Counted from the first letter of the stretch, positions 1-64,000 are shown. The stretch: DNA of 64,000 bases from Prevotella sp. (GCA_045602085.1 JAZSAV010000039.1:36118-100117); one strand, 5' to 3'. Made by a program: numbers and translations. Notes: a model not told the origin generated them from the sequence alone.

Positions 1-1580
1 TCCTGCTCTGCATTATTTAGCATTTGAATGTTTGGAAAAGAGTTAGCTAATGCAAAACGTATCTGTGCATATTGTTTTTTTGATATATTATGACTTAATA
101 CGAAATTCAGTCGTGGTGAAATCTGTGTTATCCTGTTTTCACCATGAAGCTTGTATTGTAATGATGAAACACCGGGTCTGAATGTTAAGGTTGTACTATT
201 CCCTATTTGTTGTTTGTATAATGCTAGCAATATACTTTCTCCTGTCCAAAGATGTTGCCAAAGTCTTTTTTCTCCAGCATATGTGACGGAACTGACTTTA
301 TGAAAATGATGTAATTGGAATGCAATAGAACTCCTTTTCTTTAATTGTATTATGTAATTGATATTTGCAGATAGTTCATATAGGTTTTCTTTAGTATCCA
401 TCAATGTCGTATTGCTGTTTTCTTCATAAGTGCGTAAATATTCGTTAGTCGTATAGCTATTATTTAATGTCATCTTGATATTTTGCTTAGAGCTTATTTT
501 GAATTCACTATTTAAGTTAAGGGAAATTTTTGAAGCATCCTTCTCTATTATAGTTTGAGATGAATCCAATATGTTGTAAAGTTCACTATAGTTAAGTAAA
601 CTATTTGTTTTATTATTAAGTGCGCTATGTTCTAATATCAATTTTGCTTTTAAAATTCTTCTTTTATTATTGCTTGAGGCTGCAAACTGAAAATATTGGT
701 CGTTTTTCCTTGTCTCTTCATTTTTTGATTCTTTCTGTCGATGTAAATTGTAATCTGGGAAATAGAAAATTTCATTGCTATAATTGTTGTTTTTGTCGTG
801 TTCTTGAGTACTAAGTCCTGCGAATACATTGTAGTTTGTGCCTTCTTTGGCCAATTTCGTTGCAAAATTGTAGTCATAGTTAAGATAGCCCATTTTGTTA
901 GCTCCATCGAAAGATAAGTATCCACCTGATTTAAAAGTAACAAAATTAATAACAATCTCTTCTCCTATATATTTACCGTTTGGTACATCAATATACTCTA
1001 CCTTTTTAATTTCATGTGGTGACAAGTTTCTTACTTCGCGAAAATCTGCTTCTATCCCGTCAATAAATAGTGTGACATTGCACCCATAGTTTGAAATCTT
1101 TCCCGTAGATTTGTCAATATTCAATCCAGGAATCATCATATTGTACAGCAAATCATACCCATTTTGAGAATGTTTCTTATGTTCAGAGAGAGGGTGAATA
1201 ATAGTTCTGTCTGCCAAGCGGACGGTATTGCTTCCTACTACATATATTTCGTTTATGTTATTTATGTTTGATTTTAACGTAGCTGTAGGTAATACAGTAT
1301 TATTTTGTTTTACTGTAATTATTGTATCTTTGTTGATATATCCAATACAACTAAACTTGATAAGATAGTCCCCATTCTTGATATTCGCGAATTGGTAATT
1401 ACCAACACTATCAGTTTTTATACCTTGAATAAAGGTAGAGTCATTGAGGAATAATTTGACTGTTGCTAAAGGTATGGTTTGGCCATTTGAGTCCACCACT
1501 TTACCCTTTAAAATATTGTTTTTAGCGTAAATGTCAGAAATAAAAAGAATACATGTAAATATTAGAAAAATATGTTTCAT
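1..1580 (-). CDS. Outer-membrane beta-barrel/TonB-dependent-receptor-like protein with N-terminal carboxypeptidase-regulatory-like domain (runs off the left edge)
   Basis: Not in the ORF track. Manual translation from ATG 1580 gives MKHIFLIFTCILFISDIYAKNNILKGKVVDSNGQTIPLATVKLF...GIKTDSVGNYQF...YLIKFSCIGY, then a plug-like segment (NGYDLLYNMMIPGL...VEYIDVPNGKY). Frame was open in the segments checked. Confidence 0.75.
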   Translation of the reverse strand, partial: MKHIFLIFTCILFISDIYAKNNILKGKVVDSNGQTIPLATVKLFLNDSTFIQGIKTDSVGNYQFANIKNGDYLIKFSCIGYINKDTIITVKQNNTVLPTATLKSNINNINEIYVVGSNTVRLADRTIIHPLSEHKKHSQNGYDLLYNMMIPGLNIDKSTGKISNYGCNVTLFIDGIEADFREVRNLSPHEIKKVEYIDVPNGKYIGEEIVINFVTFKSGGYLSFDGANKMGYLNYDYNFATKLAKEGTNYNVFAGLSTQEHDKNNNYSNEIFYFPDYNLHRQKESKNEETRKNDQYFQFAASSNNKRRILKAKLILEHSALNNKTNSLLNYSELYNILDSSQTIIEKDASKISLNLNSEFKISSKQNIKMTLNNSYTTNEYLRTYEENSNTTLMDTKENLYELSANINYIIQLKKRSSIAFQLHHFHKVSSVTYAGEKRLWQHLWTGESILLALYKQQIGNSTTLTFRPGVSSLQYKLHGENRITQISPRLNFVLSHNISKKQYAQIRFALANSFPNIQMLNNAEQ

Positions 1581-1649
1581 ACCGAGTAAGTTTGTATTGT
1601 TTTAAAAGTGAGTAAATTTTATGTTTACTCACCTTTAAGGAATTGACTG

Positions 1650-1844
1650 TTAGACGGAGAACTCTGTACAAGTGAAGCATATGGTTAGGGTACATGCTAA
1701 ACTATCTAAATTGGATTGACTGAATAAATCAGCCATTTCACCCCCTAATAACGGATCCGTTTCTAATCTTTCTTCTAACTGCTGAATTGTAAACTCTGTT
1801 GTTAAATCCTCGTTTAGAGGAATCATACTCTTCTTTTTAGTCAT
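1650..1844 (-). CDS. Putative RiPP precursor peptide (64 aa)
   Basis: Starts 12 bp after the radical SAM stop; acidic leader (QQLEERLETDPLLGG) and C-terminal CTLTICFTC. Confidence 0.75.
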   Translation of the reverse strand: MTKKKSMIPLNEDLTTEFTIQQLEERLETDPLLGGEMADLFSQSNLDSLACTLTICFTCTEFSV

Positions 1845-1856
1845 CTCTTTAAAATT

Positions 1857-3242
1857 TTAATTAATACTATTTGAAACTAACTCGGAATAAATTTTCTGAC
1901 AGATATACTTTAAACGTAAACCATAATCATCACATATTGATTCTTGATTTCTTGACATTGCTTTAGCGTAACAACCTCCTCCACACAAAAATGCATATTT
2001 GCATTTAATGCATTTTTGTATATCCGTTATGTTTTTATTGAACCACTCATCTTTTTTCTTTGTCCAATTTAGTTTTGGTGAGTAAGTTCCAATGGCATTA
2101 TTTTGTTTTCCTACCATTTCAAGACAAGAAAAGATTCTACCATAAGGATCAAAAACGTAGGAATTACCATGCGCTACACAATGTATAGGAGAAAGTAACA
2201 ATCCTTTTTTATTTGTTAATGCAAATGAAATCTTTGAATACAAATTTGCTTCGAACTTAATTTTATTATTTGTGAGTTTCATTGCATCTAAAAAGTGTTT
2301 CCGAGACATATGTTTGCTTTTCAATGAATAATTATATTCAATCGGGTTAAAATTGCAATTACCAGAAATGTATTCTGCATAAACAGAGAAATTTTTCATA
2401 GAATAAAAGCCGTTATCTGTAAAATAATCATTCAATTCATGTAATGCCTCAATATTTTGAGAATCAACATTTATTCTTACTTGAATAGCGACATTTTTAT
2501 ATAGGGCTAATTTGATATTGTTGACTATCTTTTCAAAAGATTTGCCGTAAACAGCATGAATTCTTCTTGTATCATGTATGTGTTTGGGACCATCTATTGT
2601 TATTTGTATTCCTTTTAACTTATCTGGTGATAATAAATCTTCATAAGTGTCAATATCGTAACCATTACTTGTTGCAATGAATGTGAAACCATATTCTCTG
2701 CCTTTATTGATTATATATGTAACTATTTCTTTATTATCTTTGAGTAAAGGTTCACCTCCGAATAGTTGAATGCAATGATTGTGTAATTGGCTATTAGGTT
2801 CCAGTACTTTTATTGTTTCAAAAATTAAATCAACATATTCTTTTGTTATAGCTCTATTATTCTGTAATGATATGGTATCAATATTATCTTTTTCGAAGCA
2901 ATATGGGCATTTAAAATTACAATTATAGGTAACTAATATTGTAAATGATTTTTGCCACATATATTTATTCCTTTTTTGAAGGACTCGTACTATTCTTTTT
3001 GCATATTCCACCTCATCTTCTTCGCTCCACTTCGTAATGTAGCCTCTTTTTTCCAATGCCTCCATTGTTGTTTTAGAACATGGAATCTCTTCTTTGGAGA
3101 AATGTTTATGGTTTTGCAGGTACTCCGCAATATCTTTGCTGAGCACATCTATAGCCCCGGTATAGCCATGCATCATAAATACATTGTCAGGCTCGCTTTC
3201 GAGTGGCACAACGATTGAATATGATGAAAAACGATAATCCAT
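1857..3242 (-). CDS. Radical SAM/SPASM peptide maturase
   Basis: CNFKCPYC (CxxxCxxC), FGGEPLL, SPASM-type cysteines (C...C...CIKCKYAFLCGGGC...C); RRE-like N-terminal ~90 aa. Likely start is ATG 3242 (MDYRFSSY). Confidence 0.9.
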   Translation of the reverse strand: MDYRFSSYSIVVPLESEPDNVFMMHGYTGAIDVLSKDIAEYLQNHKHFSKEEIPCSKTTMEALEKRGYITKWSEEDEVEYAKRIVRVLQKRNKYMWQKSFTILVTYNCNFKCPYCFEKDNIDTISLQNNRAITKEYVDLIFETIKVLEPNSQLHNHCIQLFGGEPLLKDNKEIVTYIINKGREYGFTFIATSNGYDIDTYEDLLSPDKLKGIQITIDGPKHIHDTRRIHAVYGKSFEKIVNNIKLALYKNVAIQVRINVDSQNIEALHELNDYFTDNGFYSMKNFSVYAEYISGNCNFNPIEYNYSLKSKHMSRKHFLDAMKLTNNKIKFEANLYSKISFALTNKKGLLLSPIHCVAHGNSYVFDPYGRIFSCLEMVGKQNNAIGTYSPKLNWTKKKDEWFNKNITDIQKCIKCKYAFLCGGGCYAKAMSRNQESICDDYGLRLKYICQKIYSELVSNSIN

Positions 3243-3268
3243 AATCAGAATATATTGATGTCGTTCAT

Positions 3269-3646
3269 TTATATGATTGTCACAACCCCATAATAGCAAG
3301 TATTACCATTGATAATTCTCAGTTCATATTCGCCTGAAAGATTGTTTGGTAATACCAGCTCGTTTGTTCCCATAGGAATAACCACTTCATAACAGATATT
3401 TTCTGCTGCATCTACAATCTGCAATGTGTATCCATCACATGGAGTGGCAAAGTAAAGTATGTTGCCATTTAAATAGATGGTTGGGATGATTTCTGGAGTA
3501 CGAGGCTGTGGGTCTAAAATATCTTTTAAAGGTACATCACCAACATGAAGTTTTATCTGCTCGCCAACAAAATCCTGTTCTCCATTTGCAAATGACATCA
3601 TCGACATCATTAGCATGATTGCTGTAATAAATGTTTTCATCTTCAT
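3269..3646 (-). CDS. Small secreted DUF3244-like Ig-fold protein
   Basis: Signal peptide, PRTP motif, C-terminal GEYELRI...YYG typical of the Bacteroidota family. Confidence 0.65.
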   Translation of the reverse strand: MKMKTFITAIMLMMSMMSFANGEQDFVGEQIKLHVGDVPLKDILDPQPRTPEIIPTIYLNGNILYFATPCDGYTLQIVDAAENICYEVVIPMGTNELVLPNNLSGEYELRIINGNTCYYGVVTII

Positions 3647-3670
3647 AATTTATAGTTTTATTTACGTTGG

Positions 3671-3795
3671 CAAAATTATGAAAAGGAAATATAATAACAA
3701 AAAAAAGTGCGTACACTTTGTACACACCTAATTGGGGGTAAAAATAAGCTACTGTATTACAGGAGGATACGCTGGTAGTACATTTTGTACACACC
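3671..3795 (-). promoter_or_regulatory. TAnnTTTG promoter element plus two TTTGTACACACC direct repeats
   Basis: TAATTTTG on the minus strand near 3671-3678; 12-bp repeat at 3717-3728 and 3784-3795. Confidence 0.5.
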
Positions 3796-3803
3796 CAAAA
3801 GTT

Positions 3804-5423
3804 TTAAAGATTCTGCATGTTCTTGTTTAGTGAACCAGCTCCTTTCTCACCGAAAAGTTTCTGATTTGCGGTGCTTCTAATGTTTGTTACTCTCTGTTTC
3901 GTTAGAGAAAGCAGAACACCAATCATGGATGAGGAATAGCCCATTTTTGATAATAGGCAAACATGTATTTCTCTTTGTGTCAATTCTGGATTATTGTTCA
4001 TTAAGCGTTCACAGAAAGAAGGCATATACTTTTCCATCGCTTCGATGAAATCGTTTAATTCTTCATCTGATATTCTTTTGCCTGTTGTTGCAAGGACATC
4101 AAGATGCTGCATAATAGGACTTTCATATAATGCTCGTGAACAGTCCCATTTCTCTGTAGAGGTATTGTCGCCAAGAATAGATAATGATAATTTGAGTTCA
4201 GCCAATTCGGCTTCTTTAGTTTCTATATATTTATTATGGTCTCTCCTAAGTAACTTTAGGTCGAATGCCGTTTCTTTGTATTTGTTTAAAGTGTCCTTGT
4301 ATATGGCTTCTGCTTTGTTTATTCTTTTCTTTTGCCTAATAATATATAATGTAATGATAAAGGCAAGTGAGCAACCCAAAAGACAGAACAAGAGCATGGA
4401 GTTTCTATATCGTTCTGCTTCTTGCTCTTTTATTTTTGCCTGTCGTCTGCTCGCATTATAGTTGTAAAGCGCGTTGGCTCTATTTATCTCTTCTGCTGAA
4501 CTGATTAGGCAAGCAGAGTCGTTGGCATTGGCAAAGAGCAGAGAGTATTTCATAACGGAGTCTGGTTTGCCGAGTTTGTGGTAAACTTCCATCAGACCCT
4601 TATAGGCATTTTCATAATATACAGATTTATTGCTATTATTGAGAAATTTTTTATAGAAATAAAGTGCAGAATCTACCTTATTGATGCCATTGTAATATTT
4701 TGCCTTATAATAATAGAATAATATTCTTTTTTTAGAGGTGTTTACAGAATCGTCAAACAAATTCATTTTAGTTTCAAACAAATCTATCAAAGGCTTGGCT
4801 CTGTCATATTGTCCATTGTTTAAATATGTTGCAAAAAGGGAAGGCAAAACGGCATACGCCTGTTTTTCATGACCTAATTTCATATGAATATTATATGATT
4901 CTTGTCCTATATGCAATACGGAATCATAACGACCTGTTAAATCGTATATAGATGCTAAATGTGAATAGAAGTTAAGTATGGCAAGTGTGTCATTGCATTT
5001 CATTGCTATATGAAGAGCATTTAAATTTGCTTCTTTTGCAAACTTTGGTGATCGCTGATAGTAAAACAAATCTGCCATCTGTCCATAAATCCTACTCAGT
5101 CGTTGGAAGTCGCAATCGGCATCGGTGGTGTCTGCCTTGCTTACGGCATCGTGGTAGCACTCAAGGGCACGAGGGGCATCGCCAAGGTCGCGATAGACGC
5201 AGCCGAGGAGATAGTGGGCGAGCATCTGCTCGTTGGCAGTGCCGTGGCTGTCGTAGTAATCGACAACGCGCAGCATGGTGCTGTCGGTGGTGAACGGTTC
5301 GAAGTTCTCGTTCTGTGCTTTTGCCTGCATCAGGGCTTCGTGCATCTGCCTGCTGTCTTCGCCTGTGCAAGCGAAGAATGTGAGCAAGGCAAAAAGTATA
5401 ACCAATATATTTCTCGTAAACAT
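3804..5423 (-). CDS. TPR-repeat lipoprotein-like sensor with transmembrane helix and C-terminal LuxR-type HTH
   Basis: Lipobox-like FFAC, TPR-like helices, TM segment MLLFCLLGCSLAFIITLYII, LTQREIHVCLL...RVTNIR HTH. Likely start 5423. Confidence 0.75.
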   Translation of the reverse strand: MFTRNILVILFALLTFFACTGEDSRQMHEALMQAKAQNENFEPFTTDSTMLRVVDYYDSHGTANEQMLAHYLLGCVYRDLGDAPRALECYHDAVSKADTTDADCDFQRLSRIYGQMADLFYYQRSPKFAKEANLNALHIAMKCNDTLAILNFYSHLASIYDLTGRYDSVLHIGQESYNIHMKLGHEKQAYAVLPSLFATYLNNGQYDRAKPLIDLFETKMNLFDDSVNTSKKRILFYYYKAKYYNGINKVDSALYFYKKFLNNSNKSVYYENAYKGLMEVYHKLGKPDSVMKYSLLFANANDSACLISSAEEINRANALYNYNASRRQAKIKEQEAERYRNSMLLFCLLGCSLAFIITLYIIRQKKRINKAEAIYKDTLNKYKETAFDLKLLRRDHNKYIETKEAELAELKLSLSILGDNTSTEKWDCSRALYESPIMQHLDVLATTGKRISDEELNDFIEAMEKYMPSFCERLMNNNPELTQREIHVCLLSKMGYSSSMIGVLLSLTKQRVTNIRSTANQKLFGEKGAGSLNKNMQNL

Positions 5424-47606: not shown

Positions 47607-48872
47607 ATGATAGTAAATTTCACAGTCAAGAATTATCGCTCTTTCAAACAGGAACGCACGTTCAGCATGGAGGCGAGTTCCATAAAGGAACATAAAGAGT
47701 CAGTCATCAACAAGGGCAAGTACAATTTACTTCCGTTGGCAGTTTTCTATGGTGCAAACTCTGGTGGCAAGAGTAATTTCATTCAGGCTGTATCTACTAT
47801 GCGAAGCATGGTCAGACGTTCTGTGCGCCTGAATGAGGGCGATGCACTTCCATACGATCCTTTTGCATTGGATGAAAACTCTGACTTGCGACCTACTTTG
47901 TTTGAGATACAGTTTATAAAAGGTGAGGTGCTTTATCGCTACGGTTACGAATACGACAAAACCGACATCATATCTGAGTGGTTGTATGAGAAACGGTTTG
48001 GCGAGAAAGAATACGAACTATTCATGCGCTCGCGAGACATCATTGAAGTGTCAGCGAAAAGATTCCCAGAAGGTCAGGGAAAGGAGGATTTGACCAACTC
48101 GAATCGTCTCTTCCTGTCACTTGTTGCCCAACTGAAGGGTGAGAAGTCCAACTCGATAATGGGGTGGTTCGGTGAATGCAATGTGCTATCTGGAATAGAC
48201 AGCGAAGGCTACGAAGCCTTTACGCTCAGAATGTTTTTGGAACATTTGAACGGAGCAGATCAGGCTCAAGAGTTCTTCAAGACACTGCAACTGGGCTTTA
48301 CTCGTTTCTCCGTTAAGAAAGTAAATATTCCCAAGGAGGCATTGGATAGTGCCCCCAAGTCGATAAGGTCACAATTGGAAAAAGACATAGCCACAGGTAG
48401 TTTCGTCGAACCGATCACTACTCATAATGTCTATGATGAAAATGGACTTGTGATAGGTGAGCGTAATTTTCACAAGAACCAGATGGAGTCAGAGGGAACA
48501 AAGAAAGTGATAGAGATTTCTGGGCCTATTTTTGATACTTTGAACGAGGGCAAGACGCTGATTGTGGATGAACTGGATGCAAAACTGCACCCACTACTGA
48601 CGCGAAACATTGTACTCCTGTTTATGGATCCAGAGAAAAACAGGCATGGAGCACAGCTTATCTTTGCTACACATGACACAAATCTACTCGATTTGGAGAT
48701 TGTTCGTCGTGACCAAATTTGGTTTGCAGAGAAGGACAAAGTGGAGTCTACCGACATCTACTCGCTTGTGGAGTTCAAGGATGAAGACGGGAAGAAGGTT
48801 CGTAATGACCGTGATATCAAGCGTGACTATATCCGGGGCCGCTATGGTGCCATACCTTTCATTGGAAAATAA
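47607..48872 (+). CDS. AAA_21/RloA-like ATPase
   Basis: NYRSFK, YGANSGGKSN, ESEGTKK, VDELDAKLHP, FATHD. Confidence 0.9.
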   Translation: MIVNFTVKNYRSFKQERTFSMEASSIKEHKESVINKGKYNLLPLAVFYGANSGGKSNFIQAVSTMRSMVRRSVRLNEGDALPYDPFALDENSDLRPTLFEIQFIKGEVLYRYGYEYDKTDIISEWLYEKRFGEKEYELFMRSRDIIEVSAKRFPEGQGKEDLTNSNRLFLSLVAQLKGEKSNSIMGWFGECNVLSGIDSEGYEAFTLRMFLEHLNGADQAQEFFKTLQLGFTRFSVKKVNIPKEALDSAPKSIRSQLEKDIATGSFVEPITTHNVYDENGLVIGERNFHKNQMESEGTKKVIEISGPIFDTLNEGKTLIVDELDAKLHPLLTRNIVLLFMDPEKNRHGAQLIFATHDTNLLDLEIVRRDQIWFAEKDKVESTDIYSLVEFKDEDGKKVRNDRDIKRDYIRGRYGAIPFIGK

Positions 48873-48881
48873 AGTGATGCT

Positions 48882-49580
48882 ATGGGATATTCAAGAAAAG
48901 AAGAAATCGCAAAGCTGAGGCGGGAACGCAAAGAAGCCAAGGCTGCCAAGAAACGCAAGGAGAACATTCGCGAAAAACTAGTGCGTTTTCTCATAGTCTG
49001 TGAAGGTACGAAGACAGAGCCGCACTACTTCGAGGCTCTTATCAATAATTGCATCTCAGCCGTTCGCGAGGTGACGATTGAGGGCGAAGGCCGGGCAACA
49101 GTTGCTCTGGTGGATAGAACGCAGGAAATCAAAGTGGAACTGGAGCGGAAGAATGCCATGACTTTTGACCGCGTGTGGGTCGTTTTTGATAAGGATGACT
49201 TTGAAGACTTCAACGAAGCCATCAAAAAAGCCCATAAGTTGGGCTTCCGCAGTGCATGGACGAACGAAGCCTTTGAACTATGGTACTACCTGCACTTTGA
49301 ATACCTTGATACAGGCATCAGCCGCTCTGCCTATATTGAGAAACTCGAAGAAGTTTTTAGAAACAGAATGGGTGACGAAACCTTTAAGTATCGGAAAGGC
49401 AACCCTGATATATACAGCCTACTCCAGCAGTATGGCCGCGAGGATTTGGCTAAGCGCTTTGCCCTGCAGCTACGTGCATTATACACTGGCATCGACTATG
49501 CAACCCATAAGCCTTGCACGATGGTTGACAAGTTAGTGGAAGAACTGGAGCACCCGGAATTATTGTTAATAAAGAAATAA
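48882..49580 (+). CDS. RloB-family protein
   Basis: IVCEGTKTEPHYF, VWVVFDKDD, WTNEAFELWYYLHF. Confidence 0.9.
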   Translation: MGYSRKEEIAKLRRERKEAKAAKKRKENIREKLVRFLIVCEGTKTEPHYFEALINNCISAVREVTIEGEGRATVALVDRTQEIKVELERKNAMTFDRVWVVFDKDDFEDFNEAIKKAHKLGFRSAWTNEAFELWYYLHFEYLDTGISRSAYIEKLEEVFRNRMGDETFKYRKGNPDIYSLLQQYGREDLAKRFALQLRALYTGIDYATHKPCTMVDKLVEELEHPELLLIKK

Positions 49581-49595
49581 AGGAGATTAGAAGAT

Positions 49596-51416
49596 ATGTG
49601 GGCAGACAATGAGACAAAAGATGACCTGCTAGGTTATCAGGTACATGCAGATTTGCTACGTGACGTAGTTCTTGACCCTAAAATGCTTCCAATTTCTATT
49701 GGTGTGTTTGGCGATTGGGGGTCTGGAAAGAGTTCCCTTATGCTTTTAATGCAGGAATCCATTGAGAAATGGAGAACTGAAACTGAGGAGGCAAACAAGG
49801 TAGGGGGTGCAGCGAAGAAGAATGCCAGAGTGCTTCAAATCATGTTCAACAGCTGGCAGTTTGAGGATTATGAAGATACTAAACTCACGTTGATAGAAAC
49901 CATACTGAGTGACGTAATAAAAGATATTGAAGACCACAGAGATGTTTTTGAAAAAGCAGATGCATGCCTCTCAAAAATCAAATACCTCAAGTTGGGCGTA
50001 GTTGTTCTCAAAAATTTAGCTCGGAAGATTATTCCCAAAGAGATACAAGAGCTGCTGCCAAATAAAGAGGAGTGGAAAGAAATAAGCAAGGAAGACCAAG
50101 ACCTGCTACTGGATGAGGTAAAGGAGGCTAACTCATCGCTCTTCATTAAGCGATTCAGAGAAGATTTTACCCAAATTATTGCAGACGGCGACTACCGTTC
50201 AGTTGTTGTGTATGTTGACGACCTGGACAGATGTTCGCCAAAGCGTATTATTCAATGTCTTGAGGCTGTAAAATTGTTTGTGAATGTTGATAAGACGGCA
50301 TTTGTTATAGGTGCAGACCAAAGAATTATAGAACATGCTATCCACGAGCAATACAAGACACCACTACAACAAACAACAATATCAAGCCCGTATTCTGATT
50401 ATCTGGAGAAACTGATTCAACTACCCTATAAGCTTCCCAAACTGTCATATTCAGAACAGGAAACCTACGTAACGCTGCTACTTTGCAGTAAGATGGAGAA
50501 CGAAAACTTGTTCCCAACTATACACAAGAAGTACCTGAAGTTCCGAGAGAAAGACAAACACAGCAAGTATGGTTTGGACAAGATTGAAAAAGATAACCCC
50601 GAAGTTAATTTTAGTACGACCAGTGGCTATCTCTCTATTATTCCCATTATGGCCAGTTTCCTGAACGGCAATCCACGCCAACTTAAACGATTTCTCAACA
50701 CATTTGATATGAGAAGAAGAATGGCTGGTGTTGCAGGATTCAGGGAGATAGCCCCTGAAATGTTGGTCAAGCTCATGGTATTGGAGTATAATAGCCAACT
50801 AAGGCAATACATTGATGATCTGTATTCCAAGCAGAAGGACACAGGATTCATAAAGGGTATGAAGAAAGTGGAGGAACAAGCCGAGGCTGGCGAAGTGAAA
50901 GAAAGCGGATGGAAAGATTTGTGGAACACGCCGGAAGGAAAGCGATGGCTATCCACAAAACCATCATTAGCCCAGAAGAATCTCAGAAACTATTTCTGGA
51001 TTTCACGAGAAGCATTACAGGTGGCAACACCAATTGAAAGCAAAGTATCAGCTCTGGTACAGGGCGTTTATGACAGGCTCAAAATGAACCAAACCGATAA
51101 AGCATTGAGCGAGAAGATTTGGAACGAGACGAATAGGTTTACCAAAGATGAGTTTTGTATGTTGGTGATGTTGTTAAACCAAGAATTGATGGCAAACCCC
51201 GAGAGTGAAGTCGTGCGAAGGTTTGTTGATGTAGATAAAGACAATAAGATATTTCAAACAGTACTAGATGTCAAAGACCTTTTTGAGGGAGTTGATACAG
51301 GAAAACTAGGACCAGAGTACAGCGATTTCTTGAAGAGAAAGAGCAATGACGCTGCTTGTAAAGCATATATTGATGGTCTTAATTTGAGTCAGCCACTAAA
51401 AAATGCAATGAAGTAA
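49596..51416 (+). CDS. qatA: KAP-family P-loop NTPase, QatA-like
   Basis: MWADNET..DLL, GDWGSGKSS, FNSWQFEDY, VDDLDRC, YLEKLIQ, GNPRQLKRFLN. Confidence 0.85.
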   Translation: MWADNETKDDLLGYQVHADLLRDVVLDPKMLPISIGVFGDWGSGKSSLMLLMQESIEKWRTETEEANKVGGAAKKNARVLQIMFNSWQFEDYEDTKLTLIETILSDVIKDIEDHRDVFEKADACLSKIKYLKLGVVVLKNLARKIIPKEIQELLPNKEEWKEISKEDQDLLLDEVKEANSSLFIKRFREDFTQIIADGDYRSVVVYVDDLDRCSPKRIIQCLEAVKLFVNVDKTAFVIGADQRIIEHAIHEQYKTPLQQTTISSPYSDYLEKLIQLPYKLPKLSYSEQETYVTLLLCSKMENENLFPTIHKKYLKFREKDKHSKYGLDKIEKDNPEVNFSTTSGYLSIIPIMASFLNGNPRQLKRFLNTFDMRRRMAGVAGFREIAPEMLVKLMVLEYNSQLRQYIDDLYSKQKDTGFIKGMKKVEEQAEAGEVKESGWKDLWNTPEGKRWLSTKPSLAQKNLRNYFWISREALQVATPIESKVSALVQGVYDRLKMNQTDKALSEKIWNETNRFTKDEFCMLVMLLNQELMANPESEVVRRFVDVDKDNKIFQTVLDVKDLFEGVDTGKLGPEYSDFLKRKSNDAACKAYIDGLNLSQPLKNAMK

Positions 51417-52228
51417 TGGGAACATCACAGGGATTGACTTTGAAAAAAACTCCGCAGTGGTCTTCTGCTAAAAGAGCGATGACGGGGTTGTTGAATGACT
51501 TGGAGAATGATGCCAAGCTGGAGAACTTTATGCTGAAGTTCTATCAGGCACTTGGTAGTGATGGGATATACATTGGAACCACAACATCAGGCAGCAGTAG
51601 CGGAGGAACCAGTACACGAGGCAGTGGCGGAGGTGGAAGCTCATCCCGCGATAGCCGTGGGGGTGGGTCAAAAGGACGTCGTTCATTTGGAAGAGCTGGA
51701 GCTTCTGCAGCAACGAATTTGCTGGGCTTCTTTTCTGACGTTCGAGACAATGGCCTGTCGCAAGCCATAGAACTTGCCAACACGGTTGGAGTTGAGGTTC
51801 CGCAATCACCAAGAGAACTGATCAATTTTTTGTGTGGATTGTCGTCGGTTGGTACGGATGCTGACTTTGATTCTGAAGCTGCCAATGCTGCTCAACGAAA
51901 ACTGCTATCGGAGATTTTTAAGTCGTGTGAAAACTTGACAGATGCAGAGGAAATCATAAAACAAGCAAATAAGGATACCATTGATGCTTGGATTATTGAT
52001 TTTGAGGTCAATTACATTATCGAGTTTCAAGGTTCTTTGTTTCAGAGCCACATCTTTGATAAAGCCCAAGAGCCAGACAAAGTGGCCGGACAGATAAGAA
52101 GGTGGCTTCATAGTAAACTTGACAAACGATTGTCTGACGAAATGAAACACATTAACCTTTTTTCGGAAGAGGGGAAACGATATGTTGAATCACTCACTGC
52201 TAAAATATTAGATATATGGAAGCAGTAA
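51416..52228 (+). CDS. qatB: QatB-like protein with Gly/Ser-rich linker
   Basis: MGTSQG start, P.WS.AKR; position between QatA-like and QatC-like genes. Confidence 0.75.
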   Translation: MGTSQGLTLKKTPQWSSAKRAMTGLLNDLENDAKLENFMLKFYQALGSDGIYIGTTTSGSSSGGTSTRGSGGGGSSSRDSRGGGSKGRRSFGRAGASAATNLLGFFSDVRDNGLSQAIELANTVGVEVPQSPRELINFLCGLSSVGTDADFDSEAANAAQRKLLSEIFKSCENLTDAEEIIKQANKDTIDAWIIDFEVNYIIEFQGSLFQSHIFDKAQEPDKVAGQIRRWLHSKLDKRLSDEMKHINLFSEEGKRYVESLTAKILDIWKQ

Positions 52229-53625
52229 ACATCACTATTAAATACGAGCCTGCCGCAACGACAAGAGAGTTTGGACATTATATTCTTTCGTTCACAGGAC
52301 TTGAAGGAACACAATACTCTGTAAAACTGAAATTCGGTTTTGATGAGCTAAGGAGTATAGCACAGGATACGAGTTCCATTGCGTTTGATTTCCTAGTTTT
52401 CTCACTATCTGTCTATAATGCAGACCGTGTTATAAGCAGGGCGCTATATTCGGAAGAAGGATGGTGCAGAAGGATGAGATTGTCGGTGCCGGTGCTACAT
52501 CTTTCTGAAATGAATAATTCAAAAGAGACGCTGACTTCGGCTTTGAATTTCCTGACAGGAGATGATTGGGAGTTGAACTTCAAGCAGGCTGAACCCTATT
52601 TGATTGATCAAGAACTGCTTTTAGTTGACCGTTCGGTATATGGACGAGTCTCACTATTCTCAGGAGGGCTAGATTCATTGATTGGTTTTGTGGATGGCTG
52701 TGCTTTGTTAGAACCAGATAAAAAGATACTTCTGGTGTCACACAAAGAACTTGGCAAGGAGTGGTCAGACCAAGTAAGAATATTGGATGACTGCAAGAAA
52801 CACCAGATCTATACGGGTAAGTATGAGCAACTATTAGTCAATGCTGGTATTAACAACCAAGGATGGATTAGCCAAAGGGCAGTATGCGAAGGAACTTTTA
52901 GGGCACGCTCCATCTTATTCATTGGGGCTGGAATATATTGTGCTCATGCCATTAATCCGCAGATGCCGCTGATTATCCCTGAGAACGGGACAATCTCACT
53001 CAATATCCCTCTTGACCAAGGACGACGAAGTGCTTGCAGTACGAGAACAACACATCCTGTGTTTTTGAAGAGACTACAAGAGGCACTTGCTCTTATGGGT
53101 ATTAACAACAAGTTGGAGAATCCTTATCAGTTGAAGTCTAAAGCAGATATGATGATGGATTGTTGTGAAGACTCAGCAAAGAAGGCTGCTTTGGCGGTGC
53201 TGTATAAAGATTCATGTTCTTGTGCTAAAAGGTCACATAAAAAATCGTGGAAGCGAAGGAGGGATAAGAATGGTAAACCTATTCTTCATTGTGGTTTCTG
53301 CCTGCCTTGTATCTACAGACGTGTTGCTCTGGATGCTGTGGGCTGGGGAAAGAAGGAACCAGTTGGTGTAAATGTATTTAATGTTAATGAAATCGGGCTT
53401 TCAAATCCAGAAATTAGAAAAAGCAGAGACTTTAAAGCCTTGCTCTATTTCTTGAGGAAACGATATAACAGGGATACCATAGAGGGTGAACTCATTGCTA
53501 ATGGAGTGTATGAGAAACAGGAATTAGAAGAATATACCACATTCTTATTGAATTCTTACAACCAAGTAAAGGCATGGGTCGGTAAATATGGCAATGCCCA
53601 AATAAAACGTCTTGCTGGCATATGA
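52216..53625 (+). CDS. qatC: QueC-like protein, QatC
   Basis: SLFSGGLDS, RARSILF, IPENG.ISLN, RTTHP, HCGFCLPCIYRR. Confidence 0.88.
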   Translation: MEAVNITIKYEPAATTREFGHYILSFTGLEGTQYSVKLKFGFDELRSIAQDTSSIAFDFLVFSLSVYNADRVISRALYSEEGWCRRMRLSVPVLHLSEMNNSKETLTSALNFLTGDDWELNFKQAEPYLIDQELLLVDRSVYGRVSLFSGGLDSLIGFVDGCALLEPDKKILLVSHKELGKEWSDQVRILDDCKKHQIYTGKYEQLLVNAGINNQGWISQRAVCEGTFRARSILFIGAGIYCAHAINPQMPLIIPENGTISLNIPLDQGRRSACSTRTTHPVFLKRLQEALALMGINNKLENPYQLKSKADMMMDCCEDSAKKAALAVLYKDSCSCAKRSHKKSWKRRRDKNGKPILHCGFCLPCIYRRVALDAVGWGKKEPVGVNVFNVNEIGLSNPEIRKSRDFKALLYFLRKRYNRDTIEGELIANGVYEKQELEEYTTFLLNSYNQVKAWVGKYGNAQIKRLAGI

Positions 53626-54311
53626 TTATTGACACGCATTGTCATTTTGATATGATGTCTCAACCAGAAGCCTACATTAGGCAGAAGGAACAGGCAGGTG
53701 ACATCGTGATTGGTATGACCAACCTGCCATCGCATTTTGAAATGGGGCTTCCACACGTGAAAAGATATAAACATATCCGATTAGCTTTGGGATTGCACCC
53801 ATTGTTGGCATCAGAAAATAAAAATGAGTTGCCATTGTTTAATTGCCTTCTTGACCAAACATCCTATATAGGAGAAATAGGGCTGGATTTTTCAAAAGAG
53901 GGAATTACGACAAAGAATGATCAAGTTTTCATATTGAGAAAGTTACTGGAAAAGTTAAAAGGCAAGAAGAAAATAGTCAGTGTACACTCACGTAAGGCAG
54001 AGAGGGAAATGGTGGATTTACTACGCGAATATGAAATTGAAAATGTCATTTTCCATTGGTATAGCGGTCCTATTGATTTAATCACACCCATATTGGACAT
54101 GGGCTTCTATTTTTCCGTCAATGAGGCCATGTGTATATCGAAGAAAGGGAAAGCAATTATTGAGAGGATACCACTTGACCGAATACTCACAGAAACAGAT
54201 GCTCCGTATAATGAAAGGACAGATATTCAGAATGTTCTACATTATTTGAAGATGGAAAGCACTGATGTTCAACTAAATTTTATGAGATTATTAAAACGAA
54301 TTAAGGCATAG
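53622..54311 (+). CDS. qatD: TatD-family nuclease, QatD
   Basis: DTHCH, LGLHP, IGEIGLD, SVHSR, FHWYSG, LTETDAP. Confidence 0.9.
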   Translation: MIIDTHCHFDMMSQPEAYIRQKEQAGDIVIGMTNLPSHFEMGLPHVKRYKHIRLALGLHPLLASENKNELPLFNCLLDQTSYIGEIGLDFSKEGITTKNDQVFILRKLLEKLKGKKKIVSVHSRKAEREMVDLLREYEIENVIFHWYSGPIDLITPILDMGFYFSVNEAMCISKKGKAIIERIPLDRILTETDAPYNERTDIQNVLHYLKMESTDVQLNFMRLLKRIKA

Positions 54312-54374: not shown

Positions 54375-56573
54375 ATGGGATTGATTGATCCGACATACGG
54401 CATTATTCACTATTTTGTAATGCTGGGTAGGAGAACGTATCCTAATCCCATAGCTACACTTCCGCCCTTATGTATGAGGCATCGCTTACTTCAATATTTG
54501 ACGAGCCTGCCTCATAACGTGTATCATTATCTGCAAGGTTGTGACTATTTGCAGAGGGTGATGTTATCTGGTGCAAAAAGCGGATTAGAAGTAGATTTCA
54601 TATTTAATGACTCTATAGAAGAACCATCATTGAGCATGGTGCTTTCTAATGGGTTGAATGTGTTCCTAATCTGCACCAATAACGATGACGAATTGATTGA
54701 GATGAACATCAGCCTGTCGAGGGTGTGTAATAAGAATTGTCTTTTCTGGATAGACGAAGAAAAGAAGGAGAAGTTTATCATGCCGTCGGTTGTGACAACA
54801 GCTGAGCAATTTTGGGATTTCTTATTTGAGTATTCACAACCGCTAATGAAAGATATTGAAGCCCCGCTTTGCGTGCCACTTTGTGGTGGTAGCGTTGTTT
54901 TTCCATATTTTAAGCCTGCTAATATCACTTTCTTTACTTTGACATCTGCGTTGGGCAACTGGGGTATAGGTTTTTATCTCAATAACCATAAGGAAATAGA
55001 AATCCTGAAAGAAAAGGCGCAAGAGGTTCTGGCAGACATGTATGGGTGGACAAGACAGGAAAAATCCATTGACATATTAAGCCAACTTTATGGATTATGT
55101 CAAGATGCTTTCAGGACTGCTTCTGGCAAAACTACAGGGTTCCCGGATCAGAACTATCCTCCAATTGTAATTGCAGCACCATACACTACGAAGGATGTTA
55201 GGGATTTGTTCAAAATGATGGCCAAAAGCGAGAAACCACTTCAGTTAATAGACAAAGTGGTAGAAATGGAACAGACACCCAACTACTGCTATGATGTCAA
55301 TGCAGAAAATGTAGGGAATGATTTTCGAAAGACAAACACCTTTATCAGACTCTTCCACGCTAGTAGGCTGGACTTTTTAGACATTGTGGCCAATCTGCAT
55401 TGCTCATTCCGTTTTTCCCCTTATTTACGGTTACCTCTGGTCTGTAAAAGCCTCAATACAGAATTGTCATTCGTAAGTGTAAAGAACAATGTGCAGTTGG
55501 CCTATTCTAAAGACCGTATGGCTTACGATAAAGCCATCCACAAAGTTGGAGAGACGATGGCGCAAAAACTCTTGGCACCCAAAACGGCAAAGATGCTGGA
55601 AAATATGCCTGCACAGATAGTAGCCATGACAGACCTCCCGATAGAGTGGATGGAAGTGAATGGAATACCACTTGGCTTTACGCATGATGTTTGCCGTATG
55701 CCCGAAACTCCATCTTCTGGAATGTTGACTCACTACGGCATAGCAAGGTTTTCAAGTTTTTATAAGATACCAGGAGATATTTTGACTAAAACTCTTGTGG
55801 TATATGGTTGTAGGGAAGAGGCGTTTAGGGAATGGCAAGACAAAGCGGATGTCTGCGCTCAGGCATTAGGGGCAAAGACTGTTGTTTGTCAAAGCCTAGA
55901 TGAGTTTGAAAAGGCTGTTAAACAGCATAAGCCGGACTTTTTGATTATTGATAGTCATGGCGGAACTGACCTATCAAATCATCAGAGTTATATTTACATG
56001 GGCGACGAAAAGGTATATCCTAAAGATATTTCGACACGAGGAATATCCGCCAGATTAGTGTTTATCTCCGCATGCAATACAGCCCCATGCTATAATGATG
56101 TTAATACTGTTGCCAATGCACTTCTGGAAGTGGGCGCATCTGCCGTGACATCTTCATATTTGCCATTGGATGTTGTGGAATCATCTACGCTGTATATACG
56201 TATTCTTAATCAACTGAACCAAGCTGCTCATCATGATATACATCGAAACTGGCTAGCCTTTATTTCACATATGCTAAGGACGTCGTTTATCATGACACCA
56301 CTTGTGGAAAATGCCCAAAAGGAGAATCCAGAACCAATGGATCCGATGCAGACAGGTAAGGTAAACACTTTATCGATGTATTTCGAGAAGAGGGCTGAGC
56401 TGTACAGAAAACTCAAGGCTGGTGAGCAGGTGGAAGGGTTGAAATATGATTTCTCGAAGGCTGTTCCTCATTATCTGATGTATACTACTACAGGTAGGGC
56501 TGACCTCATTATGTTTGAATCATCATTTCAGAAGAGAAAAAAAGAGTATGAAAAAATGATGCAAGGATTATGA
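54375..56573 (+). CDS. Protein with C-terminal CHAT (caspase-like) protease domain and unrecognised N-terminus
   Basis: LIIDSHGG (His) and LVFISACNT (Cys), then ALLEVGASAV. Confidence 0.7.
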   Translation: MGLIDPTYGIIHYFVMLGRRTYPNPIATLPPLCMRHRLLQYLTSLPHNVYHYLQGCDYLQRVMLSGAKSGLEVDFIFNDSIEEPSLSMVLSNGLNVFLICTNNDDELIEMNISLSRVCNKNCLFWIDEEKKEKFIMPSVVTTAEQFWDFLFEYSQPLMKDIEAPLCVPLCGGSVVFPYFKPANITFFTLTSALGNWGIGFYLNNHKEIEILKEKAQEVLADMYGWTRQEKSIDILSQLYGLCQDAFRTASGKTTGFPDQNYPPIVIAAPYTTKDVRDLFKMMAKSEKPLQLIDKVVEMEQTPNYCYDVNAENVGNDFRKTNTFIRLFHASRLDFLDIVANLHCSFRFSPYLRLPLVCKSLNTELSFVSVKNNVQLAYSKDRMAYDKAIHKVGETMAQKLLAPKTAKMLENMPAQIVAMTDLPIEWMEVNGIPLGFTHDVCRMPETPSSGMLTHYGIARFSSFYKIPGDILTKTLVVYGCREEAFREWQDKADVCAQALGAKTVVCQSLDEFEKAVKQHKPDFLIIDSHGGTDLSNHQSYIYMGDEKVYPKDISTRGISARLVFISACNTAPCYNDVNTVANALLEVGASAVTSSYLPLDVVESSTLYIRILNQLNQAAHHDIHRNWLAFISHMLRTSFIMTPLVENAQKENPEPMDPMQTGKVNTLSMYFEKRAELYRKLKAGEQVEGLKYDFSKAVPHYLMYTTTGRADLIMFESSFQKRKKEYEKMMQGL

Positions 56574-56798
56574 CGCAAGATCAAAGGTGGCAAATTAGGT
56601 TTGATGAGGTGATAAACTTCATGGAGAAAGAGCATAGAAAGCCTTCTAAGTACTATCCTAAGAGAAGTTGATGTTTCACTTCATCCATCATAATAAGAAA
56701 CTGTATAATGGCGGATTTTTGAAGGCAGAGAGAATAGAATCTTTTGAGCGGTTGCTAGCGTTGTGTGAATAATACAGGCGAAAAAACATTATGTGTAG
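56570..56798 (+). pseudogene. Eroded small helicase-associated (HA)-like gene
   Basis: MTQDQRWQIRFDEVINFMEKEHRKPSKY, shifts frame to EKLMFHF...KAERIESFERLLALCE*YRRKN. Confidence 0.5.
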
Positions 56799-56812: not shown

Positions 56813-58099
56813 ATGGGCAATGGAGTAACTATAATAGTTGGTGCAGGTGCTGTTCTGGACTTTGACCATAAGGGTATATTTCCATCTGTGAAGAATATTA
56901 CAGATGAGGTGCTTAAACTGAACATCCAGAAAGTGGATGGAGGTGAAAGACCGCTTCTGCGTGAAATTAATGATTTTATTGTTGGGAAACTGAATCAAGT
57001 AGGCCGTCCAGAGATAAATCGCTATGTTCCGCCACAATTAAATTTTGAGAACTTGTTGCATGTCATCGAAATGTGCATTGCTTATAGCGGCGGCTGGCAT
57101 AAGGAATATGTGTCTTGGATCCCATTTCCAGAGTTCGGAACCTTGATTCAACCAGTCAAGTTCTTGAAAGATATTCATACGTATGATTATATCAGGGCTG
57201 CATATGGGCTGCAAAAGACAGTAATGGACATCGTGAATCAATACGATGCTTCTTTTTGTGAGGATAAGTCAGCGGAACAATGGTATCGAGATTTCTGGAA
57301 ATCCTTGTCTGGGAAATCGAATATCTTCAATCTGAATTATGACAATACGATAGAGAATAGCCTTGGTGAATATGAGGATGGATTTCCTCCAATCAAAGAT
57401 GGAGAGGATTATAGTCGCTTTTCAACGAGACGATATTATGAAAACTCAAGAGGTGTTTCAACTATAGCACATTTGCATGGTCAGATATTGTTCAGCGAAG
57501 CAAGGGAATATCCGTTTGATTATAGTATGCGGGACATGGTAAAGAACAGAGATTATAAAACCGCGTGTAAAAATAGGGGTGGTGGGCAGTTCCCCCCCCC
57601 ATCTAATCAGGCGAAGGAAGAGTATTTACAACCTGAAATCGTGTCTGGTTTAAGGAAGACCGAAAAGATGACGTTCGCTCCCAATAATGTCTATCTGTCG
57701 GATTTGGCGAGAAAGGTGATTGAGAACAATCGATTGATGATTATTGGGTATTCATTTGGGGACTTGTATCTGAATGAGATTCTTGGATTGGGTATAGCCG
57801 CCCATGGAGATGACTTCAAAGTGGTGATTATCGACAAGTTTCCTGCCTATATTAATACATATTCATCTTTGTTCCAGCACGTGACTCATAGATGTAATCC
57901 TCAAGAATACACTTTTGTATCAAGGCTCGCTAAGGATAGGCTGTTTGTTGAAGTAGGACAGGAGGATTTTCCGCTTATTGTTGGAAATTATGGTGTTCCA
58001 GTGGTTTCAAGGAAAGGTAATTTGATGATGTGTATAAACGGATTCAAGGATGCGGTAGAGAACGATAAAGAAACCATTCTTAAGTTTCTTGGAGTGTAA
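56813..58099 (+). CDS. SIR2-like (SIR2_2) domain protein
   Basis: IIVGAGA, NLNYDNTIE, HLHG, IIGYSFGD. Likely start 56813. Confidence 0.8.
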   Translation: MGNGVTIIVGAGAVLDFDHKGIFPSVKNITDEVLKLNIQKVDGGERPLLREINDFIVGKLNQVGRPEINRYVPPQLNFENLLHVIEMCIAYSGGWHKEYVSWIPFPEFGTLIQPVKFLKDIHTYDYIRAAYGLQKTVMDIVNQYDASFCEDKSAEQWYRDFWKSLSGKSNIFNLNYDNTIENSLGEYEDGFPPIKDGEDYSRFSTRRYYENSRGVSTIAHLHGQILFSEAREYPFDYSMRDMVKNRDYKTACKNRGGGQFPPPSNQAKEEYLQPEIVSGLRKTEKMTFAPNNVYLSDLARKVIENNRLMIIGYSFGDLYLNEILGLGIAAHGDDFKVVIIDKFPAYINTYSSLFQHVTHRCNPQEYTFVSRLAKDRLFVEVGQEDFPLIVGNYGVPVVSRKGNLMMCINGFKDAVENDKETILKFLGV

Positions 58100-62598: not shown

Positions 62599-64000
62599 TC
62601 AGAATTTTATAGGCATAATCTTGTAACACATGCCTTTGCTTGTTCTTTTAGACGCATAACCAAGTGCTTGGAGATGTCTGCCTGTTGTTATGCCGGCGGT
62701 TTTGTTGACGACGAATGTAGGGAATTCCTTTTTCAGGCGTTCCATTACATCATATATCGGCACATAGGCGGCATCGTCAGGTGTCTCATTAGGCGTTAGG
62801 TGGGTGAGCGTAATCATCTGATATAGGTCGTTAACTTGCTGATACTGAGAGTTGTGCTCGATGTTAAGCGCGTTTTCTTCTTCGTTGAACCAATATCGGC
62901 GCCCTTCGTCCAGTTCCTGACATAGTTGGGCATACACCATGTTGTGATATATTATGCCAGAATTGTCAATATCGCTGGCGTAGGCGCATACGAAACGTCG
63001 GCTGCCGGTTGGGTCGGTGAGAGGTCGCAGGCAGTTGGTAGTGGCTATGAACGACGCAAAGCGCTGGCGCTGCTGGATGACCTTGCCATAAGGAGGGCGC
63101 ATCTTCACGTCGTGCTTTGAGAGTAGGTATTTCAGCAGAGGCTGCTGACTCTTTTTCATTGAGTCGAACTCGTCGATATTGATGAGTGCGAACGAGGTCA
63201 TGGCGGCAAAGATATCGTTGTCGTTTTTCATGGAAATGCGGTCGTTGAAGTAGGTCTGGAGATACTCCGGCAGCAAACGGCGGCAGAAGGTCGTCTTTCC
63301 GGAACCTTGCGGACCTATGAGCAAAGGCACTATAGCGTTTCCATGCTGCAGGTTCATGCCTCGCCATTGTGCCACCATAGACAGCATCCATGTGTGGAAA
63401 AAGTCTTTCCAGCGAGGGTGGTCGGTCTTTACACGGCTAGCCAGTTCTCCCACCCAGTCGCGCCTGCCGTCCCAGCGTGGCAGATTGCGGAGATAGTCAT
63501 CCATGGGGTAGTATTTAGGTATCAAGTCGCTGTCGATATAGCGGTTGAGGTCCTTGTCCCACGAGTCAACGCCAGCCTTGAGAGCGAGTATCGACATGGT
63601 GTTGCGTGCCGCCTGGTCGAGCGGTTGGAAACCGTGTCCTACGGCGTTTTTGCGATACTCAGGTGTGCCTGTCATCACGTTCAGGCGCAGGGTGTAGTGC
63701 TCTTTCATGTAAGCCTCGGTCTTGAATGTGAGCAGCGCTGACGGACGTGTGAATTTCATCGGAAGCGTTTTCAGCAGTTTTATCTTGTAGGCGGTTCTGA
63801 ATGCCGAACGTATCATTTCCTCGTTTTTTTTGCCTCCGAGCAATGGAATAAATGTGGAGGTACGTACGGCATAGGCTTCTGGCAGCCCCATCTCGTGGCA
63901 TCCGGCTGCAAGCTGTTCTATCACGGCGCAGGTGAAATCCTCGCCCTCTTTGTCGATATGCATCTCAATGGCGTTGTCGAGACAATCGTGAAAGCGGCGC
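62599..64000 (-). CDS. VirE/VapE-family P-loop ATPase (5' end off the window)
   Basis: GPQGSGKTTF, INIDEFD, RPPYG...RFASFIATTN, DPTGSRRF; frame open to the right edge. Confidence 0.9.
   Translation of the reverse strand, partial: RRFHDCLDNAIEMHIDKEGEDFTCAVIEQLAAGCHEMGLPEAYAVRTSTFIPLLGGKKNEEMIRSAFRTAYKIKLLKTLPMKFTRPSALLTFKTEAYMKEHYTLRLNVMTGTPEYRKNAVGHGFQPLDQAARNTMSILALKAGVDSWDKDLNRYIDSDLIPKYYPMDDYLRNLPRWDGRRDWVGELASRVKTDHPRWKDFFHTWMLSMVAQWRGMNLQHGNAIVPLLIGPQGSGKTTFCRRLLPEYLQTYFNDRISMKNDNDIFAAMTSFALINIDEFDSMKKSQQPLLKYLLSKHDVKMRPPYGKVIQQRQRFASFIATTNCLRPLTDPTGSRRFVCAYASDIDNSGIIYHNMVYAQLCQELDEGRRYWFNEEENALNIEHNSQYQQVNDLYQMITLTHLTPNETPDDAAYVPIYDVMERLKKEFPTFVVNKTAGITTGRHLQALGYASKRTSKGMCYKIMPIKF

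Follow-up and report, generated by a model that had tools for sequence, protein, structure and literature searches.

A divergent BovA-like caspase-like protease, probably the single protein of a Borvo system, in a rumen Bacteroidales defence island

Among the bacterial immune systems that rely on a CHAT (that is, caspase-like) protease, the closest to the gene analysed here is Borvo, a system that consists of one protein, BovA, and that is already named, cloned and included in both PADLOC and DefenseFinder. A review (PMC10952713) lists Borvo as a CHAT-protease system and cites Millman et al. 2022 for it; the words Borvo and CHAT do not occur in the bioRxiv version of that study (10.1101/2022.05.11.491447), and the attribution to Millman 2022 rests on the papers that cite it. 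The Borvo system of Escherichia coli 403116 works through abortive infection (Stokar-Avihail et al., bioRxiv 10.1101/2022.08.27.505566), is toxic upon co-expression with the DNA polymerase of phage SECphi4 and is escaped by phages T5, SECphi4 and SECphi18 through missense mutations within the polymerase's proofreading cleft (both bioRxiv 10.1101/2022.08.27.505566). Here we analyse a gene carried by a 64,000-nt stretch of Prevotella sp. DNA (GCA_045602085.1, JAZSAV010000039.1:36118-100117; hereafter the window, with all coordinates counted from its first letter). The gene lies at 54375..56573 on the plus strand, its frame is open and encodes 732 amino acids (aa), and we conclude that it is most probably a divergent bovA, that is, the gene for the single protein of a Borvo abortive-infection system.

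Assignment of the protein to this family draws on both domain and defence-system profiles. Pfam recognises one domain in the 732-aa protein, CHAT (PF12770; residues 507-619, 26.4 bits, E = 5.7e-6), at a score just over the curated gathering cutoff of 24 bits, and PADLOC matches the protein to BovA (PDLC03831; 153 bits, E = 2.4e-45, with protein residues 198-641 aligned to 197-631 of the 720 profile positions) and to no second family. This single assignment is common to the clade, given that all 46 homologues in an alignment built for it (identity down to 34%; hereafter the clade alignment) match the BovA model and no other PADLOC model. A search of 5.8 billion proteins yielded 184 relatives; among the 120 matches listed, nearly all are 700-750 aa long and cover 96-100% of the query, with identity down to 35%. 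The genome that carries the window has one copy of bovA (the same single BovA match), BovA is found in none of 14 control genomes, and, of 300 other genomes from the same family, 1 carries a bovA-like gene. Such a patchy distribution, which follows defence islands, is the pattern expected for a mobile defence gene. An earlier note on this locus, made from the sequence alone, had described a stand-alone caspase-like CHAT protein in a defence island and had read it as an immune effector; the open frame, the Pfam domain and the predicted fold (see below) agree with that description, which is clearly more than a chance resemblance. The general reading as a stand-alone immune CHAT protease is right as well, but it had missed that a single-gene system of this architecture already has a name.

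For comparison with E. coli-type BovA we used a phage Ayreon protein and an alignment of 24 E. coli-type BovA proteins, rather than the E. coli 403116 protein itself. The Ayreon protein, found by tblastn against phage records, is a 729-aa 'hypothetical protein' encoded directly after an integrase, and it scores 801 bits over the full BovA model. BLASTP aligns window residues 390-669 with Ayreon residues 388-671 (E = 3e-19) in a colinear manner, and hhalign of the clade alignment against the E. coli-type alignment extends the match to 361 columns (residues 339-719 against 319-709; probability 99.7%, E = 6e-27). The catalytic half of the protein thus belongs to the BovA family, with homology running from about residue 333 through the C-terminal tail. 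On the basis of hhalign, BLASTP and Foldseek, we delimit a conserved Borvo core at residues 333-720 (55371..56534, plus strand), which comprises the CHAT domain and a C-terminal helical tail. The earlier note had put the unrecognised N-terminal part at about 450 residues; such a part is present, and its length comes down to about 330 residues, since homology to the E. coli type starts near residue 333.

Within the core, the catalytic dyad that the earlier note had reported as intact is indeed in place. The predicted catalytic histidine stands in the motif DSHGG (His528-Gly529; 55956..55961, plus strand), directly after a strand formed by residues 522-526, and Cys567, the predicted catalytic cysteine, stands in the motif ISACNT (Ala566-Cys567; 56070..56075, plus strand), directly after a strand formed by residues 561-565; the codons were checked for both. 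Residues H528, G529, S565, A566 and C567 are invariant in the clade alignment, and in the comparison with E. coli-type BovA (BLASTP and hhalign) DSHG aligns with DCHG and ISAC with LSAC. The most conserved block of the family lies upstream of the dyad, at residues 414-446 (55614..55712, plus strand; QIVAMTDLPIEWM...GFTHDVCRMPETP, that is, DLPIEWM...GFxHDVCRxPETP), and served as a search pattern. Eight of its residues (D420, L421, P422, E424, W425, H437, C440 and R441) are invariant in the clade alignment, and two of these, His437 and Arg441, are also present in E. coli-type BovA (FSHEISR). Invariance of the dyad and of many other residues down to 34% identity argues for selection on catalysis.

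Structure prediction, which the earlier note had proposed as a check, gave the expected fold. An AlphaFold2 model of the whole protein, built from the 46-sequence alignment, has a mean predicted local distance difference test score (pLDDT) of 88.8 and a predicted template modelling score (pTM) of 0.91, and is consistent with one compact body. Foldseek against the PDB places Csx29/TPR-CHAT at the top (E = 5.5e-8, probability 1.0), followed by gingipain R, a SAVED-CHAT filament (8tl0, E = 1.8e-4) and separase, with E values from 5e-8 to 3e-3 overall. In the model, the histidine follows one central strand and the cysteine follows the next, as in caspase-like enzymes, and the predicted structure thereby confirms a clan CD caspase-like fold for the protease part. 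The sequence profile of the clade alignment, searched against the PDB, returned only spurious matches to de novo designed proteins (E = 0.05).

The N-terminal region (residues 1-332; 54375..55370, plus strand) has a different character. It is predicted to start with an alpha/beta domain (approximately residues 1-135), followed by helical segments and then by a further, small alpha/beta part. No region of the family is less conserved, its mean column identity being 0.32 against 0.49-0.63 for residues 346-620. Residues 1-470 modelled alone reach a pLDDT of 83.4; the fold search that the earlier note had called for, run with this model, found no PDB or BFVD (viral) structure at E < 0.001, nor any below E = 0.02. 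A SIS or flavodoxin-like alpha/beta fold appeared as a candidate for these residues with a probability of at most 0.57 and a TM-score of about 0.15, and we do not interpret it. When a profile of residues 1-340 was searched against 1.84 billion cluster representatives, 160 clusters matched, none of them an E. coli-type BovA. Among the matches listed, those of at least about 680 aa are almost all about 700-775 aa long and carry the region at their N terminus, and they give no evidence that the region has been shuffled onto other effector types; about half of the matches listed are shorter than about 680 aa and may be fragments, and one further match, to a 1765-aa protein, is weak and repetitive. 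The named members of the approximately 160 clusters all belong to Bacteroidota or Fibrobacterota, except for one Tissierellaceae metagenome-assembled genome (MAG). On plasmids, tblastn found only distant CHAT proteins, aligned from about residue 259 onwards (for example, on Leptospira biflexa plasmids).

We presume that this clade-specific region is a sensor or autoinhibitory module. As it has no detectable kinship to the E. coli-type N terminus, the trigger and the regulation may differ between the two types. A more specific version of this idea is that the N-terminal ~330 residues form a sensor module that has no relation to the one in the experimentally validated Borvo of E. coli, joined to the same CHAT killing module, in which case the clade would recognise a phage cue other than DNA polymerase and Borvo would be modular in the manner of Avs; we put this forward tentatively, as a possibility that is on balance somewhat doubtful.

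Several points weigh against the identification as BovA. The window protein scores 153 bits on the BovA hidden Markov model, far under the 801 bits of the E. coli type; its match to the Ayreon protein spans the C-terminal half alone, at 22% identity; and profile-profile comparison of its N-terminal 340 residues with E. coli-type BovA gives a probability of 0.1% (hhalign). In addition, the experimental evidence on Borvo (that is, abortive infection and the DNA-polymerase trigger) concerns the E. coli protein only and no member from Bacteroidota, and in the literature searched we found no description of the substrates or the structure of the Borvo protease. Another reading would make the protein a caspase-like protease that serves housekeeping or some other purpose outside defence, or else an inactive relic that is in the island by chance. 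The origin of the experimental data outside the window clade and a Pfam CHAT score barely over the cutoff would fit such a protein; invariance of the dyad and many other residues down to 34% identity, a presence confined to 1 of the 300 related genomes, surroundings that always consist of defence or mobile-element genes (such as integrase, IS66 and Abi genes) and homology to a validated defence protein do not, and we regard this explanation as very unlikely. A divergent BovA therefore remains our preferred identification, and the question becomes whether it works with a neighbour.

The contexts of its homologues bear directly on this question. BovA homologues occur in at least 10 different contexts, nearly all of which are built of other defence genes (AbiH, AbiTii, AIPR, SLFN_AlbA_2, PHP-AAA and SIR2-STAND). 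In one of them BovA adjoins an integrase, IS66 and an AIPR gene; elsewhere it lies downstream of PHP-AAA and AbiH genes, of AAA_14/DUF4143 and AbiTii, or of an SMC-like ATPase and a Bflower protein, and it is also found upstream of uncharacterised 283-aa, 328-aa and 614-aa genes, of SLFN_AlbA_2, of a YgjP peptidase, of a glycosyltransferase or of a SIR2-STAND protein. There is no conserved partner gene, so BovA of this clade is a single-gene system, as Borvo is, and the window gene stands as a cassette of its own within the defence island of this rumen member of Bacteroidales.

One candidate partner is the SIR2-like gene downstream, which could form a two-gene system with BovA in which the CHAT protease cleaves and activates, or is controlled by, a SIR2-type NADase, like Csx29-Csx30 or a protease-gasdermin pair. 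In three distinct contexts, BovA is indeed followed directly by a SIR2-family gene (the window; a Segatella/Prevotella clade represented by locus L016 and by 39-aa remnants in L005-7; and the Fibrobacteres locus L026, where the protein is an unrelated SIR2_2-STAND protein), and an AbiH-like fragment is found downstream of BovA in L015. However, as defence islands often contain SIR2 domains, adjacency is expected by chance, and the two genes are readily found apart: the SIR2-like gene has four independent contexts (L043-L051) in which there is no CHAT gene, and in one of these AAA_14/DUF4143 is followed by SIR2 in the same frame that holds AbiTii-BovA in L006 and L032. Close homologues are far more numerous for the SIR2-like gene (at least 120, at 82-93% identity) than for BovA. 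Conversely, an intact BovA stands beside a frameshifted SIR2 gene (L016, from Segatella buccae), beside a SIR2 remnant of 39 aa (L005-7) and in loci that lack SIR2 (L032 and L009). The SIR2 protein of L016 shares 81% identity with its window counterpart, and the BovA of L016 only 36%, a pattern that indicates shuffling of cassettes and not joint inheritance, and in the window itself bovA and the SIR2-like gene are separated by 240 nt with a broken small open reading frame (ORF). We consider a two-gene system very improbable.

The weakest alternative adds the CHAT gene to the upstream QatABCD operon as an accessory fifth member (with a part in QatB processing, for example) that has no autonomous function. 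In its favour, the gene shares the orientation of qatD and follows it after 63 nt, no terminator is obvious, and the order AbiL-Qat-BovA recurs in loci L008 and L009. It is nonetheless a most improbable reading, given that Qat genes flank BovA only in these two islands, where BovA is 93-100% identical, that the other contexts hold no Qat gene at all, that PADLOC and NCBIfam define Qat as four genes with no CHAT component, and that in L008 (a yak-omasum MAG; 1192-5230 against window 49596-53625) QatA and QatC are only ~30% identical to those of the window and tblastn detects no QatB, whereas AbiL (87-98%), QatD (94%) and BovA (99.7%) are conserved, such that the Qat genes and BovA are exchanged independently. 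The suggestion of the earlier note that the substrate could be a neighbour (that is, the SIR2-like protein or QatB) consequently lacks support on the same evidence: the variety of contexts, the SIR2 contexts that lack CHAT, the intact BovA genes beside decayed SIR2 genes and the restriction of Qat to near-identical islands.

With BovA read as a single-protein system, a working model can be put together from the E. coli Borvo work and by analogy with other CHAT proteases. One chain would combine two parts, the clade-specific N-terminal region of ~330 residues and a C-terminal CHAT (clan CD) protease module of ~390 residues. In the uninfected cell, the N-terminal region may pack against the protease and keep it off. 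Upon infection, a phage-derived cue sensed by BovA itself would release the protease; in E. coli Borvo this cue is the phage DNA polymerase, with escape mutations in its proofreading cleft, and the cue in the present clade may be the same or another. The His528/Cys567 dyad would then cleave its targets, and the infected cell would stop growing or die before phage release.

The surroundings of the gene agree with the defence-island setting that the earlier note had proposed. The island (approximately 47.6-58.1 kb) is co-directional and of lower G+C content, counts bovA as its fourth module, and is bounded by a two-component system and a BspA-type leucine-rich repeat protein. It starts with an AbiLi/AbiLii pair (47607..49580, plus strand; AAA_21 and RloB in Pfam, with PADLOC matches to AbiLi at E = 1.4e-94 and to AbiLii at E = 1.7e-26), which is a separate system, as is the QatABCD set that follows (49596..54311, plus strand; QatA, a KAP NTPase, QatB, QatC and QatD of the TatD type). 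PADLOC matches QatA at E = 4e-77, QatC at E = 4e-86 and QatD at E = 1e-51; with NCBIfam, QatC is over the cutoff and QatB is weak. Compared with the window, L008 looks like a case of allelic replacement of qatABC in an otherwise conserved island. A sigma-70 promoter and terminator scan gave 35 sites against 35.6 expected and is uninformative for a Bacteroidota genome.

Downstream of bovA stands the broken small ORF (56570..56772, plus strand), which is frameshifted into pieces of 33 and 34 aa, has an ATG that overlaps the bovA stop codon (ATGA), bears a weak resemblance to a helicase-associated (HA) domain (Pfam HA, E = 0.023, below the cutoff) and is not part of BovA. A small ORF of ~67 aa of this kind recurs upstream of various defence genes in Prevotella-type islands (L051:4789-4956, L015:130-330 and L003:1522-1723). 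In L051 the gene that follows it is SIR2, and in L003 and L015 it precedes other defence genes; by the coordinates of the blast matches, the L015 and L051 copies are in one frame. The similarity between the window and L009 ends inside the small ORF, so that this element may be a recombination linker that joins one defence cassette to the next. The SIR2_2-like gene (SIR2_2/DUF4917/AbiH-like; 56813..58099, plus strand) encodes 428 aa, matches Pfam SIR2_2 at E = 3.4e-8 and forms a separate cassette of the defence type; its start is probably the ATG at 56813 (MGNGVTIIVGAGAVLD...) rather than the listed GTG at 56765. Its family is highly conserved and is found at the 3' end of a variety of defence arrays, where it seems to form a module of its own. 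Near the end of the window, a gene of the VapE-like/DUF5906 primase-helicase type (62599-63963, minus strand) hints at a mobile element beyond the leucine-rich repeat and esterase genes.

Two further observations concern the homologues elsewhere. In Prevotella and Segatella, the AAA_14/DUF4143 and SIR2-like genes frame a variable slot that holds AbiTii and BovA (L006, L016 and L032) or is empty (L046-L048); this looks like a candidate hot spot for defence cassettes and not like a functional pair. The BovA homologues of Phocaeicola faecicola (L028) and Parabacteroides faecalis (L029), at 46% identity, seem to be broken: the match spans residues 14-718, and the longest continuous frame covers only 463-718.

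As Borvo is known, the window gene carries little weight for the discovery of new systems, and its distinct N-terminal region is the sole point of moderate interest. What the gene does is to extend Borvo to rumen and gut Bacteroidales and, through this, to separate what the family has in common (the C-terminal ~390 residues) from what is specific to a clade (the N-terminal part). A common core with a clade-specific N terminus marks the probable site of trigger specificity, and the same split offers a natural domain-swap design for the study of how Borvo senses phage. Given that this member is compact and confidently modelled, it could also serve structural and cleavage studies.

Comparison with other CHAT systems places the protein more exactly. 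Csx29/TPR-CHAT of the type III-E CRISPR system (Craspase) is the best structural match to its protease part, and the two would share a caspase-like Cys-His protease that is kept inactive until an infection signal arrives; in contrast, the whole-chain TM-score is only ~0.3 and the sequence identity ~10%, there is no TPR in the window protein (by Pfam, and by comparison of the N-terminal model with the PDB), and among the window neighbours Pfam and PADLOC detect AbiL, Qat and SIR2-like genes instead of Cas7-11/gRAMP, Csx30 or other CRISPR-associated genes. With SAVED-CHAT the protein has the CHAT catalytic fold and an immune-effector setting in common and differs in that no SAVED domain was found in it (by Foldseek of residues 1-470 at E < 0.001, and by Pfam, which gives CHAT alone). 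The CHAT and caspase-like proteases that activate gasdermins likewise share the fold and the immune-effector setting, and no gasdermin or cyclase gene is present among the window neighbours (Pfam and PADLOC). The earlier note had listed TPR, NTPase, gasdermin and CRISPR partners as lacking, which is correct for all of these except the NTPases, as QatA (KAP) and AbiLi (AAA) are close by, in other recognised systems. A Borvo-like variant of Streptococcus thermophilus (PMC12322248), which is active against phage, is also annotated with the BovA model, yet it consists of two BovA subunits encoded by two genes, whereas the window protein is one intact 732-aa chain.

The closest counterpart is therefore E. 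coli-type BovA. The two differ in sequence (22% identity over the shared half, and N-terminal parts of ~330 residues with no detectable kinship) and in setting, as the Ayreon bovA adjoins a prophage integrase and the window gene lies in a chromosomal defence island. What they share is a single polypeptide of ~730 aa with a colinear CHAT module and C-terminal tail, a stand-alone gene in a mobile or defence setting, and a dyad at nearly equal positions (H528/C567 in the window protein and approximately H528/C566 in Ayreon BovA, from the BLASTP alignment).

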